The notes under the pieces: generated by a model
What the model saw: the letters and a program-made list of their open reading frames with translations, nothing else
What the model was told of the DNA's origin: nothing
The model's database searches: none
Shown: positions 30,670 through 34,842 of the stretch, one piece after another
Layout: every line of letters begins with the position of its first letter
Numbering within the stretch: the first letter of the stretch is position 1
NCBI GenBank assembly: GCA_937873655.1
Contig: CALMYQ010000096.1
Coordinates: 26,439 to 90,438, forward strand
Source: an uncultured Lewinella sp.
GTDB taxonomy: Bacteria; Bacteroidota; Bacteroidia; Chitinophagales; Saprospiraceae
Length of the DNA stretch: 64,000 nucleotides
Direction: 5' to 3'
Translations under genes and position numbers: made by a program

Positions 30670-30738
30670 GAGGATTCGAAAATGCGAGGATTTGAGGATG
30701 CGAACCGAATCTTCAAATCCTCTAATGCTCGCATCCTC
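30670..30738. repeat. GAGGATTT-type word hairpin containing the stop codon of the DUF3999 gene
   Basis: Left arm GAGGATTCGAAAATGCGAGGATTTGAGGATGCG, loop AACC, right arm GAATCTTCAAATCCTCTAATGCTCGCATCCTC. The stop codon is at 30738-30740. Confidence 0.85.
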
Positions 30739-31913
30739 TACCCTTCCCCCCCCTTCCTCATCATCCGTACCGTAAACCACCCCAGCGCCAGGATCACCAC
30801 GCCCATAATGCCCCACAGCCAGTTCTTGTTGGCAAACAGCGGTTGGCGGGCGGCGGCTTCTTCCTGACGGATGTCCTCTTCGGGCCCCAGGGACAGGGAA
30901 GTGAGTTTCGCAGGGATATTGTCCTCAAAGCGGTCGATGTCGTACAAGGGCTTTACGGCATTTTGGCGCCCGTAGGCCAGGAAATAGTCGGCCGGCGTCG
31001 TAAACCGCAGGGTGAGGGTATGTTCGTAGCCCTTCAGTTCCATTTTCCCGAAATTCAACGGCATATTGTCATCGTTGTACACTACGATCCGCCATTGCCG
31101 GGAGATGGCGCCTTCGAACCGGAATTCCCGCTTTTCGAGCGAGCTCAGGGTACCGGTCGACAAGGTGGCAAAGCGATAGCGCCACCCGTTCTGGGTTTCC
31201 ACGCTGTCCCTCAGGTATTGGATGGACAAGGGGCGGTAAAAATCAAAGGTATCCGCCACATTGATCCGCAGAAAAGCGGCGGGCAAGGGCATTTTCAGGA
31301 ACAGGTCAATGACCGTTTGTTTTTCATCCTTGTCCTCCTCAATATGCGTGGAGTCAACGGCATAAGTACGGTAACTGCCCTCTACGACGGATTGTTCCCA
31401 TATCCTGGCCGTTTCCAGTTCGGGGTCGGTGTCCGTATGGACCGTAAGCCGGACGTAAGCGTATTTGGCGTCCTTGAATTTCACGCGGGTGAACCGGTAA
31501 TCGGTTATGTCATTCTCGATGGCCAGTATCCGGTAATCCTTGACGATGGTAAACCACTCCTTCTGGTCCTGGCTGCCTTCGAGGGTAATGCGCCAGTCGA
31601 AATTTTCCCGGTCAAAGTCGAATTCGATGGTATTGATGATGCTGTCGGCCGGCACTTCAAAGGTATAATAGAACCCCTGGTCGTTGGACGTCTGGTTGAT
31701 CAGGTTGAAGGGGACCTCCGTTTCCACCCGTTCATCCGCGGCCACTTTCAGGATATACGGCGCCTCGAGCGTGTCCCTGGCAGGCGTAATCCCGAACACC
31801 CGGATATCGGACAGGTCGGGCGAGAGCTTGCCGAATATTTCGTCGGGCAAAGCCAGCTTGTGCCATTGGTTTTTGATGCCTTGCAAGGGGCGCTTGTAGT
31901 GGTACTGATCCAT
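30738..31913 (-). CDS. DUF3999 family protein; N-terminus unresolved
   Basis: The body (MDQYHYKRPLQGIKNQWHKLALPDEIF ... C-terminal TM WLWGIMGVVILALGWFTV) fits DUF3999, the usual neighbour of DUF2339. The coordinates use the ATG at 31913. A signal-like ILLPFLLLPLLAGAQ lies immediately upstream with no ATG/GTG/TTG. The next in-frame ATG is at 32186. The listed 600-aa ORF (TTG at 32540) reads through repeat arrays. Confidence 0.6.
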   Translation of the reverse strand: MDQYHYKRPLQGIKNQWHKLALPDEIFGKLSPDLSDIRVFGITPARDTLEAPYILKVAADERVETEVPFNLINQTSNDQGFYYTFEVPADSIINTIEFDFDRENFDWRITLEGSQDQKEWFTIVKDYRILAIENDITDYRFTRVKFKDAKYAYVRLTVHTDTDPELETARIWEQSVVEGSYRTYAVDSTHIEEDKDEKQTVIDLFLKMPLPAAFLRINVADTFDFYRPLSIQYLRDSVETQNGWRYRFATLSTGTLSSLEKREFRFEGAISRQWRIVVYNDDNMPLNFGKMELKGYEHTLTLRFTTPADYFLAYGRQNAVKPLYDIDRFEDNIPAKLTSLSLGPEEDIRQEEAAARQPLFANKNWLWGIMGVVILALGWFTVRMMRKGGEG

Positions 31914-31952
31914 TTGGGCGCCTGCCAGAAGGGGGAGGAGGAGGAAGGGGAG

Positions 31953-32038
31953 GAGGATTTGAGGATTTGAGGATTTGAGGATTTGAGGATGCGAGGATTT
32001 GAGGATTTGTTGATTTGTTGATGTGTTGATGTGTTGAT
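31953..32038. repeat. Octamer array GAGGATTT x about 7 grading into GTTGATKT x about 4
   Basis: GAGGATTTGAGGATTTGAGGATTTGAGGATTTGAGGATGCGAGGATTTGAGGATTTGTTGATTTGTTGATGTGTTGATGTGTTGAT. It lies directly 5' of the DUF3999 coding body on the minus strand. Confidence 0.9.
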
Positions 32039-32246
32039 ATGGCCTGCCGTGCGGCACCAGGGGTTGGCGCGAAAGGTCAGCAATTCTTTTAGACCGTCCG
32101 GAGTGAAACCGTTTGGAGTTTTGTGTCAACAGGATTTTTATCCCGCACAATATGTTGAAAATCAATTTTTTATACCTTTGCGCCATTGCGAGACCCCCCC
32201 TTTTTTGAACATGCTCAGCTCTTCCTGCCAATCGGCTGCTGGCTAT

Positions 32247-32455
32247 CGAAACGCCACTTACGACTTTCGACTTACGACTTATGACTCCCCCCTGACCACT
32301 GACCACTGACAACTGACAACTGCCAATTGGCGAAACGCCACTTACGACTTTCGACTTATGACTTACGACTCCCCCCTGACCACTGACCACTGACAACTGA
32401 CAACTGCCAATTGGCGAAACGCCACTTACGACTTTCGGCTTATGACTTACGACTC
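32247..32455. repeat. Tandem repeat, unit 84 bp (12 heptamers), 2.5 copies
   Basis: Units start at 32247, 32331 and 32415. Each unit parses entirely into 7-mers: CGAAACG CCACTTA CGACTTT CGACTTA CGACTTA TGACTCC CCCCTGA CCACTGA CCACTGA CAACTGA CAACTGC CAATTGG. It ends 6 nt before the DUF2339 stop codon (32461). Confidence 0.9.
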
Positions 32456-32460
32456 CATAT

Positions 32461-34842
32461 CTAGGCTTCATCAAATATCGTGTTCTTATATTTATTGTAA
32501 AGGAACGAAATGACCAGCAATAAAACGCCGAGCGACACAAAAATGATCGTTTTGCCGATCGTGCTCAAATGGGCGATGTCGTACAGGAAGAGCTTGAGCA
32601 ATGTGATGCCGAACAGAGCGATCGCTGTAATGCGCAAATAGCCCTTGCGCCGCCAGATACCCAGCACGATCAGCAGGAGGGAATAAATGCCCCACAGGAT
32701 GCTCAGCCCCAGTTTGTAGGACTGGCCGGGATCCGCGATATCCATCCAGTGTATCCATTCGCTGCTGGCGACCCACAACAGGGTCAGGTGAAGCACTATC
32801 TCGAACGGGACCTTCAGGTTGGCGTTGATGAGCGTACGGTTCCGGATATAGCGGCCGGTGGCAAACAGCAGTCCCGCAAGAAAAGCCAGCGAGACGTAAC
32901 GGATATAGAGATTCCAGCTCCCGGCGCTGAAATATTCGGATTGCGAAGGCGTCAGGTAACTCTCCCGCAACAGGCTCAGGGCATACAACCCGCCCACAAG
33001 GAAGGACAGGATCGTCAGCGCGCTGACCACCAAATTGACAGCCGCCAGGATGCGGCTCCTGAGCCACCCCAGGTTGAGAAAAGACAGGATCGTTAAAAAG
33101 CCCATGGTATAATTCAGCATCCAGATGACCTTGTACTGGAGAAAGTCATTGTTGTAAACAGGATAGGAATAATCGTACGCATCCGGCGGCGACATCACCG
33201 CTGAACCCCAGTACAGGCCATCGAACCAGGCGTTGATCTCCACCTGCCCCGTGAAGTAGAGGGTGAGGAGGAGCATGGTTGCGAGCGCGATGCGCATGGA
33301 GGATTTGAGGATTTGAGGATTCGAAAACGCCATCCTCGTATCCTCCGATCCTCGCATCTTCGAATCTTCCCAACGAATAAAAAAGAAGGAAACGGCCACC
33401 AGGATCCCCGTCAGAAACTGCACATTCCAGAACGGCCTGACAGACTTCATCACAACCTCTTCCGTCTGGTATTGAAATTGGGGATAAAAGGTCATCCAGT
33501 CCTGCACCAGGCTGAAAAAGGCCAGGAACATGAGCGGATAGGACATTTTTTCGTACACCGGTACGTTTCTCGACCGGCCGATCCAGAACAGCAGAGCGGC
33601 CTCGGCAGCCCAGATCAGGGTCACCCAGTTTCCGTCGAGCTGAACGGGGAAAGTGAGGGTGAGGAAAACCAGCACCAGGCCCGAGACCAGGTAGAACAGG
33701 TTGCGGTCGGCCAGTTTGCCGCGGTAAATGACGGCGCTGACGATGAAGTGCACGATCGCGTTGGCCAGGGTGAACAGGCCCAAAAGCTCCGCTCCTTGTT
33801 TCTGCCCGGAAAGGATGGCGTACCCCATTCCGTAAAAGACAAACGAATTGAGCAGCAACGAAGCGATATCGCCGAAATTGAACTGCTCTTTTTGCAGCAA
33901 CTTGTACCCCAGAAAGGTGAGGTAGAATTCGATGAAAAAGACCGCCGCGAAGGTCATGGCCAGGGTGAAGTGTTTGGCGGCGTCGTATTCCAGGTTAAAC
34001 CACGACAGGAAGATCAGCCAGGTCAGCCCGAATGCGGCGTAAAAGGCCACCTTCCAGTTTTTCCGGAAGGCGATGACCAGAATGCCGGCGTTCACGATGG
34101 CCATATACGCAAACAAAAAGGCGTAATTGCCGCTGCCGTCGCTGAGCAGGAAGGGTACCCCGTACGCGCCAACAAGTCCGATCAGAACGATAACCTGTTT
34201 GTTGTAATTCAGTGCGGCCAACGCGGTGAAGACCGTAAAAAAGGCCATCAATCCGAAAGTGAGCGGTTGGGGGATCAGGTCGTAAAAACCGTGAGCCGCA
34301 AACGTGATGAAGTACAGGATGGCCATGGCCCCGCTGAGCAGCACCGCGCTGAAGTTGGGGTATTTCGCTTTCAGCCTGACCGCAAACCCAAACAGCGCCA
34401 ACCCGGCGGCATAGCCAAGGACGATGCGTGTGAGCGGACTAATCAGGTCGTGGTCGATGGCGTATTTCGCGCCGATGGCTACCCCGATCACCAGAATGGC
34501 GATGCCGATGGTAGCGATCAGGTTCTCGCCGATGAATTTCTCGATATTGGACCTGGACCGCGGCGGCCGGACCGGCGGCGGGGGTGGGAGATGCGTTTCG
34601 GGTTTTGGCGGGGCCGGTTGTTCCCACACCTGTTTCGGCAGGGGCGGCGGCTTGGGTACAGCGGGTTCCGCAGGTTTGACGGGTTCCGGTGTGGGTCCTT
34701 GCTGCGCTTCGGGTTGCCCGTAACGCAGGTATTGCACTTCTTTCGAAATGGCGTCGACCTCCCTTGAAAAGGCCTCTTGTTTTTTCAGCAATTCGTCGAG
34801 CTTGTCGAGCAGCTGTTTGATCCGGTCATCGTTTTCTGGCAT
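32461..34842 (-). CDS. DUF2339 family polytopic membrane protein
   Basis: 793 aa. N-terminal coiled-coil (MPENDDRIKQLLDKLDELLKKQEAF), Pro-rich linker, then about 20 hydrophobic helices, which is the standard DUF2339 layout. A DUF3999 gene lies downstream. Confidence 0.8.
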   Translation of the reverse strand: MPENDDRIKQLLDKLDELLKKQEAFSREVDAISKEVQYLRYGQPEAQQGPTPEPVKPAEPAVPKPPPLPKQVWEQPAPPKPETHLPPPPPVRPPRSRSNIEKFIGENLIATIGIAILVIGVAIGAKYAIDHDLISPLTRIVLGYAAGLALFGFAVRLKAKYPNFSAVLLSGAMAILYFITFAAHGFYDLIPQPLTFGLMAFFTVFTALAALNYNKQVIVLIGLVGAYGVPFLLSDGSGNYAFLFAYMAIVNAGILVIAFRKNWKVAFYAAFGLTWLIFLSWFNLEYDAAKHFTLAMTFAAVFFIEFYLTFLGYKLLQKEQFNFGDIASLLLNSFVFYGMGYAILSGQKQGAELLGLFTLANAIVHFIVSAVIYRGKLADRNLFYLVSGLVLVFLTLTFPVQLDGNWVTLIWAAEAALLFWIGRSRNVPVYEKMSYPLMFLAFFSLVQDWMTFYPQFQYQTEEVVMKSVRPFWNVQFLTGILVAVSFFFIRWEDSKMRGSEDTRMAFSNPQILKSSMRIALATMLLLTLYFTGQVEINAWFDGLYWGSAVMSPPDAYDYSYPVYNNDFLQYKVIWMLNYTMGFLTILSFLNLGWLRSRILAAVNLVVSALTILSFLVGGLYALSLLRESYLTPSQSEYFSAGSWNLYIRYVSLAFLAGLLFATGRYIRNRTLINANLKVPFEIVLHLTLLWVASSEWIHWMDIADPGQSYKLGLSILWGIYSLLLIVLGIWRRKGYLRITAIALFGITLLKLFLYDIAHLSTIGKTIIFVSLGVLLLVISFLYNKYKNTIFDEA
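33298..33369. repeat. GAGGATTT-type word hairpin lying in frame inside the DUF2339 coding sequence (24 codons)
   Basis: Plus strand GGAGGATTTGAGGATTTGAGGATTCGAAAACGCCATCCTCGTATCCTCCGATCCTCGCATCTTCGAATCTTC. It is translated on the minus strand as EDSKMRGSEDTRMAFSNPQILKSS, between two hydrophobic helices. Confidence 0.85.

Follow-up and report, generated by a model that had tools for sequence, protein, structure and literature searches.

The window analysed here, a 64,000-nt stretch of DNA from an uncultured Lewinella sp., contains a 547-nt spacer that separates a gene encoding a DUF2339 membrane protein of 793 aa (32461..34842, minus strand; PF10101 matched in one stretch over residues 105-784, E = 4.6e-80) from a DUF3999 gene of 391 aa (30738..31913, minus strand; Pfam PF13163). 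Further neighbours encode a response regulator and a histidine kinase, and every neighbouring gene is on the minus strand. In gene sense, the spacer holds an 84-nt tandem repeat of 2.5 copies (32247..32456, minus strand), then a MITE-like element of ~116 nt (32101..32216, plus strand), and then a start-side tract, C-rich in gene sense (31930..32038, minus strand), in which TRF finds AAATCCTC and AAATCAAC octamers together with a CCT run and which ends 16 nt upstream of the DUF3999 ATG. Octamer arrays also occur in frame inside the intact DUF2339 gene (33299-33369), and in the sister lineage (L001, 4571-4594) two close strains differ at the corresponding place in DUF2339 by an in-frame indel of 24 nt, or three octamers, so that arrays also make the length of a protein loop variable.

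The MITE-like element has 49 BLAST hits in the genome, and alignment reveals terminal inverted repeats (GAGnCnGTTCA...) and 8-bp target duplications. It is dispersed over many loci, unlike the adjoining 84-nt unit, and it is absent from this site in the sister species, where a gap of ~135 nt takes its place both in the Lewinellaceae MAG L001 and in L016, a metagenome contig close to L001. Another copy, of 119 nt, is present in L001 and absent from L016, and such presence and absence between relatives suggests that the family moved recently. We rejected a role for the element as a promoter because its orientation is mixed, with 26 copies toward starts and 19 toward stops.

The tandem repeat itself is sharply defined. 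TRF reports a period of 84 with 97% matches and a score of 399 over 32247-32456, as fits a bacterial minisatellite (a head-to-tail unit of ~10-100+ nt), and a separate repeat search places the unit starts at 32247, 32331 and 32415, where the preliminary description had put them. Identity by offset agrees with both searches (0.98 at 84 nt, 0.68 at 7 nt and ~0.2 at other offsets). The copies are 97-98% identical, with two positions differing between copies 1 and 2 and one between copies 2 and 3, and the 7-nt phase is unbroken across the array. None of 10,000 shuffles matched the 7-nt periodicity of one unit. In the best phase its 12 heptamers share the skeleton ACT..C., with A at position 1 in 11/12, C at position 2 in 10/12, T at position 3 in 11/12 and C at position 6 in 11/12, so that the earlier parsing of the unit into exactly twelve heptamers is sound even for the words it had called degenerate, which also hold the frame. 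The array was also said to follow directly on the DUF2339 stop, and the gap is indeed short: on the minus strand, the array starts 4 nt past the TAG. Two nested levels of duplication, of 7 bp and 84 bp, had been proposed as well, and this is corroborated by the heptamer phase, which spans the unit, and by the sister species, which has a 1.5-copy state at the same site. In the sense of the flanking genes the layout is M1-s1-M2-s2-M3, where M is a 42-nt module and s a 42-nt spacer. The preliminary description was right that this is not CRISPR-like; a CRISPR array is ruled out by the intervening 42-nt segments, which are identical to each other (s1 = s2) rather than unique.

Each 84-nt unit thus consists of one module M and one spacer of GTCAGTK heptamers. 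In gene sense, M reads GG, then four AGTCRTA-like heptamers, then the tail GTGGCGTTTCG. The three modules, all on the minus strand, are M1 (32415..32456), which is identical to the first module of L001 at 39/42 positions; M2 (32331..32372), which is missing from the ENA assembly L022/L024 discussed below; and M3 (32247..32288), which is identical to the last module of L001 at 41/42 positions and whose 3' half forms a small predicted hairpin of about -9 kcal/mol. When M1-M3 and the modules of L001 and L016 are taken together, nearly every difference between copies is a G/A exchange within the CG of AGTCGTA (versus AGTCATA), which would fit deamination at a methylated CpG. The spacers s1 (32373..32414) and s2 (32289..32330), also on the minus strand, each begin in gene sense with a palindrome, GCCAATTGGC, that overlaps the preceding module by one base (the first G of the palindrome is also the final base of that module); four GTCAGTT or GTCAGTG heptamers and a G run come next. 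The palindrome after the first module was located at 32404-32413 and again at 32320-32329 in the window, and at ~5504-5513 in L001; its symmetry is kept through paired changes, reading GCCAATTGGC in the window and GTCAATTGAC in L001 and L016.

Comparison with relatives separates the history of the module from that of the 84-nt unit. L001 is the closest genome found, with a DUF2339 protein 86% identical to that in the window, and both it and L016 carry M, a 72-nt spacer and M again at an equal distance past the DUF2339 stop. Only the two ends of this 72-nt spacer are common with the spacer in the window, and its length breaks the 7-nt phase. Between the window and the sister species the modules are identical at 80/84 positions (95%), the adjoining unique intergenic DNA at 54/87 (62%) and the third codon positions of DUF2339 at 75%. 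At the end of the DUF2339 coding sequence, the final 120 nt (32464-32583) are 98% identical to L001, third positions included, against a gene average of 87%; constraint acting locally on the nucleotide sequence, or a tract of recent exchange that extends into the first module, could account for this. The non-repeated 12-nt module tail is invariant in all seven copies seen. In the genome itself the tail, GTAAGTGGCGTTTCG, occurs three times, always at the array locus, and L001 and L016 each have it in two modules at the orthologous position. A search of 200 family genomes gave no credible context for the tail and only two matches, each with 2 mismatches, and an exact-pattern scan of metagenome contigs gave six loci, of which only L016 is truly orthologous; the remaining five match by chance, in unrelated contexts. 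The 84-nt unit is therefore not a dispersed mobile repeat of the MITE or REP-like kind, its module tail being found at a single genomic locus. In the same-genus genome G096, whose DUF2339 is 65% identical at the amino acid level, the equivalent spacer holds octamer arrays only and the module is absent. The M-spacer-M arrangement, shared by the window strain, L001 and L016, therefore predates the divergence of the two species, and the third module is more recent.

These observations lead us to consider it probable that the 84-nt repeat is a minisatellite of recent origin, an unstable duplication of higher order within the stop-side G-rich tract of the DUF2339-DUF3999 spacer. Slippage or unequal exchange over the ~73 identical nt of adjacent units (counted from the copy differences) would add and remove units of 84 nt, and the same slippage would keep the heptamer words uniform. 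The array would be transcribed as a 3' trailer or intercistronic RNA of DUF2339; that RNA would be at most a generic G/U-rich spacer or protein-landing tract, and the extra 84-nt copy would have no function of its own. The variants in M2, which is M1-like at two sites and M3-like at one, and resembles M1 at its 5' end and M3 at its 3' end, constrain the route. A single unequal exchange starting from M1-s-M3 was rejected because it predicts the opposite pattern, indicating that there was at least one later mutation or, alternatively, a deletion from a three-module state.

Slippage by itself does not account for the 95% identity of M beside neighbouring DNA that is 62% identical, nor for the invariant tail, and this hints at a function for M. 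Conservation of M between species is the sole observation in these comparisons that argues for constraint on the module itself. One reading, which we regard as possible though doubtful, takes the 42-nt M to be a functional cis-element between DUF2339 and DUF3999, acting either as a protein-bound RNA hairpin with a heptamer platform or as a DNA operator, whose copy number (2 or 3) would tune read-through into DUF3999, stability or translation in the manner of a phase-variable switch. Consistent with this reading, M has a fixed position 4 nt past the stop in three genomes, the symmetry of the palindrome is preserved by paired changes, and reporter work on Nostoc heptamer repeats suggests effects on expression (preprint 10.1101/2022.06.06.494920). 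A hairpin is also predicted in most copies of M, in which the tail pairs with the odd AGTCGAA heptamer (10 pairs, one bulge, -9 to -10 kcal/mol), while the first copy in the window folds differently. Against it, neither the module (z from +0.1 to -1.5, with the hairpin at about -1.4) nor the whole array in the sense direction (z = -1.5) folds significantly better than shuffled sequence. Rfam gave no match at E <= 1 on either strand of 31800-32600, and no intrinsic terminator (a G+C-rich hairpin with a U tract) occurs inside 32247-32456, the sequence 3' of the module hairpin being CGCCAA or CGAUAG, with no U run. Furthermore, the module is missing from the same spacer in G096, three genomes are too few for covariation, and the high identity of the end of the DUF2339 gene means that a local tract of low divergence may explain part of the conservation of M.

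The minisatellite reading also calls for instability, and the preliminary description had expected such arrays to be hypervariable. Using exact-protein look-up, we located other assemblies of the same strain. An ENA contig, k141_166393 (101,396 nt), is 99.96% identical to the window over the stretches compared, yet it lacks exactly one 84-nt unit (M2 and one spacer) and reads M1-s-M3, or 1.5 copies; there is no other indel between the two in ~9 kb, several other arrays included. Two MAGs, GCA_035327105.1 and GCA_035326925.1, have flanks 100% identical to the window and a run of 100 N that interrupts the array; in each, the gap is bordered left and right by spacer sequence, as would be expected if the spacer is present at least twice or the population is mixed. 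There are thus three modules in the window, two in the ENA contig, two in the sister species and a 100-N gap in the two MAGs, so that the 2.5 copies of the window recur in none of the others. The expectation of hypervariability therefore stands to the extent that assemblies which are otherwise almost identical are either one unit apart or interrupted at this point; the cause may lie in real polymorphism or in collapse of the array during assembly. In the sister species, alignment of L001 with L016 over 7,021 bases shows 153 mismatches, and arrays there also change in copy number between close strains, with indels of 24, 80 and 10 nt within octamer arrays; the two heptamer modules are unchanged.

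Judging from these contigs, we lean slightly toward a real copy-number polymorphism. Collapse of the ENA contig at the array is a lesser but appreciable possibility. A third reading, that the third copy is itself an artefact produced when the assembler looped once through a repeat whose true state is M-s-M, we consider unlikely. It draws on the exact M1-s-M3 structure of the ENA contig and the M-s-M structure of the sister species, and on the number of contigs in this genome that end in arrays, which is high enough (215 of the 705 non-redundant heptamer arrays lie beyond the last called gene, up to the contig end) to indicate that arrays break assembly. A simple loop, however, would not create the variant combination that M2 has of its own, and the two independent MAGs break inside the array with spacer flanking the gap on both sides.

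Short-period arrays of this kind are abundant in the genome (8.07 Mb in 282 contigs, 53% G+C), which contains ~1,560 non-redundant arrays of 7-10-nt units when at least 3 copies are required. Only 21 of the 705 heptamer arrays lie in called coding sequence. Words found at the studied locus are among the commonest, ACGACTT occurring in 123 arrays, GTCAGTT in 88 and CAGTGGT in 41. Three tandem ACTTACG words, with one mismatch allowed, matched 384 and 462 times in two congeneric genomes and 45 times in a third (G000, G201 and G096), compared with 0-12 in 38 other relatives, indicating that the array words are largely genus-specific. Heptamer arrays are enriched between convergent genes (33% versus 16% of all spacers) and depleted between divergent genes (8.5% versus 23%). 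Composite long-period repeats that embed short arrays were found at 169 loci, and at most of these the period is not divisible by 7. In kind, then, the 84-nt repeat is typical, and its one unusual trait is that heptamers make up its whole length.

The arrays also have a strand polarity that follows the ends of genes. In the left half of a spacer they have G > C on the plus strand and in the right half C > G (heptamer counts 182:46 versus 43:190, Fisher p = 4e-42), and this is seen in all four gene-orientation classes and for all four periods. Arrays closest to a stop comprise 563 that are G-rich in gene sense, with a median distance to the stop of 4 nt, and 145 C-rich ones; those closest to a start comprise 304 C-rich and 102 G-rich arrays. 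The studied locus fits on both sides, with G-rich heptamers after the DUF2339 stop and C-rich octamers before the DUF3999 ATG. Stop-codon content was rejected as an explanation for this polarity: on the start-side strand ACTGACA includes a TGA, and GTCAGTT contains no stop.

For about 20% of arrays the same spacer also contains a complementary array, and in the resulting array hairpins with loops under 100 nt the G-rich arm comes first in 74 pairs and second in 2. Some long loops enclose genes for PF05635, the 23S rRNA intervening-sequence protein, a four-helix-bundle protein with 8 hits in the genome. At least 4 of these 8 lie between an upstream G-rich array and a downstream complementary C-rich array, a configuration that surrounds 25 of 5,355 called genes overall, and 3 of the 6 loops of 400-800 nt contain a PF05635 gene. 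Examples are found at C50:35485-36100, C67:15936-16600, C178:1905-2400 and C183:4100-4700. This association, together with the fixed order of the arms, could mean that heptamer tracts are the leftover G-rich arms of a hairpin cassette enclosing PF05635 and that the 84-nt unit is a stack of such arms. We think this improbable for the studied locus, where neither heptamer word has a complementary C-rich partner (no inverted partner array was found in 31800-32600, the start-side tract consisting of unrelated octamers) and where there is no cargo gene, none of the 8 PF05635 hits being located there. Moreover, ~80% of arrays genome-wide are unpaired, other long loops contain a Spo0M-like ORF or lack recognisable content, and no insertion mechanism is known. 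A full-text literature search found nothing linking PF05635 to heptamer arrays.

The weakest reading, that the repeat encodes a genuine 28-aa repeat forming the N-terminus of a 600-aa protein, has practically nothing left to recommend it: the frame is open from 32540 to 30738 and the 28-aa periodicity noted in the preliminary description is present, but, as that description also held, the N-terminus is spurious, for the ORF begins inside the DUF2339 coding sequence and then crosses the MITE-like element and the octamer tract, its PF13163 match begins only at residue 306, and the 391-aa start (ATG at 31913, MDQYHYKRPLQG) is kept in L001 and L016 despite large upstream indels and is also the one annotated in the ENA record.

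Several known repeat systems resemble the array in part. The STRR heptamers and LTRR repeats of heterocystous cyanobacteria were reportedly described by Mazel et al. in 1990 and Masepohl et al. in 1996. STRRs are tandem heptamers that form families across the non-coding DNA of a genome, variable enough to be used in strain typing, and, to our knowledge, gene-end polarity is not part of their description. The many intergenic loci of tandem heptamers in the present genome are like STRRs in this respect; unlike STRRs, they belong to a member of the Bacteroidota, are made of other words and have a measured gene-end polarity. A second resemblance is to the mycobacterial MIRUs, VNTR loci said to have been described by Supply et al. 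in 1997, which form a dispersed family with one conserved unit. Like MIRUs, the array has a unit of tens of bases in 2-3 copies, sits in a same-strand intercistronic spacer, starts at the upstream stop codon and differs in copy number between the assemblies of close genomes. Unlike MIRUs, its 84-nt unit is confined to one locus and is built from heptamers found genome-wide.

Among published kinds, the closest are the cyanobacterial STRRs, the TAACTGA heptamers (MacGregor 2015) and bacterial VNTRs. TAACTGA direct repeats occur in marine Beggiatoaceae, some Cyanobacteria and five Bacteroidetes, and are almost all intergenic, lying in a G-poor 'forward' orientation just upstream of start codons; one Flexibacter set has the reverse orientation just after a stop, and close strains differ by indels in 7-nt steps (MacGregor 2015, PMC4679880). 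The arrays described here are likewise tandem 7-nt units that are almost all intergenic, and their orientation follows gene ends, with the G-poor strand before starts and the reverse after stops; the word AACTGAC is one base from TAACTGA. They differ from the TAACTGA repeats (PMC4679880) in comprising many words, periods of 7-10 nt, ~1,560 arrays and a larger stop-side class, and the studied locus adds an 84-nt level of repetition and a locus-specific hairpin tail. Both the words (AGTCGTA and GTCAGTK) and the host, a member of the Lewinellaceae and not of the Beggiatoaceae or Cyanobacteria, set them apart from TAACTGA and from STRR1-3.

According to Rehm et al. 2015 (PMC4692102), the intergenic DNA of Xanthomonas (GGGAATC) and Nostoc is also enriched in heptamer simple-sequence repeats, whose words are G-rich and quadruplex-forming. 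Compared with the words given there, AGTCGTA and GTCAGTT lack G runs, except for the G6 at the end of the spacer. MacGregor 2015 (PMC4679880) does not cover Saprospirales or Lewinellaceae, and a full-text literature search found no description of such arrays in either group. The array belongs to a kind that is already known but unexplained, and the conserved 42-nt module is the only feature that might raise it above the ordinary.

The polarity as a whole may be viewed at the level of RNA. Bacteroidota make little use of Shine-Dalgarno pairing. Arrays after stops would supply a G/U-rich trailer, and those before starts an unstructured, G-poor leader; this view fits both the observed polarity and MacGregor's proposal for the TAACTGA repeats. 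A bolder version, which we offer as a long shot, would make M a dedicated intercistronic control element, with two AGUCGUA heptamers as a landing platform next to the small hairpin, read by a putative heptamer-binding factor. Gain and loss of 84 nt would then switch the strength of DUF2339-DUF3999 coupling, and the polar arrays throughout the genome would represent either the binding code for this factor or PF05635 cassette arms.

By itself the locus is of little import, and under the favoured reading, that of a young minisatellite, it is a well-delimited example of short-period arrays growing into minisatellites. The array could serve as a strain-typing marker, and it carries a warning for assemblies of this group, in which many draft contigs end in arrays and this one locus has been assembled three ways. 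The wider pattern, thousands of arrays a few bases from stops and starts with a fixed strand polarity, extends over several phyla and has long been unexplained. With a conserved module, present in two or three copies between co-oriented genes, the DUF2339-DUF3999 spacer offers a testable handle on that pattern.
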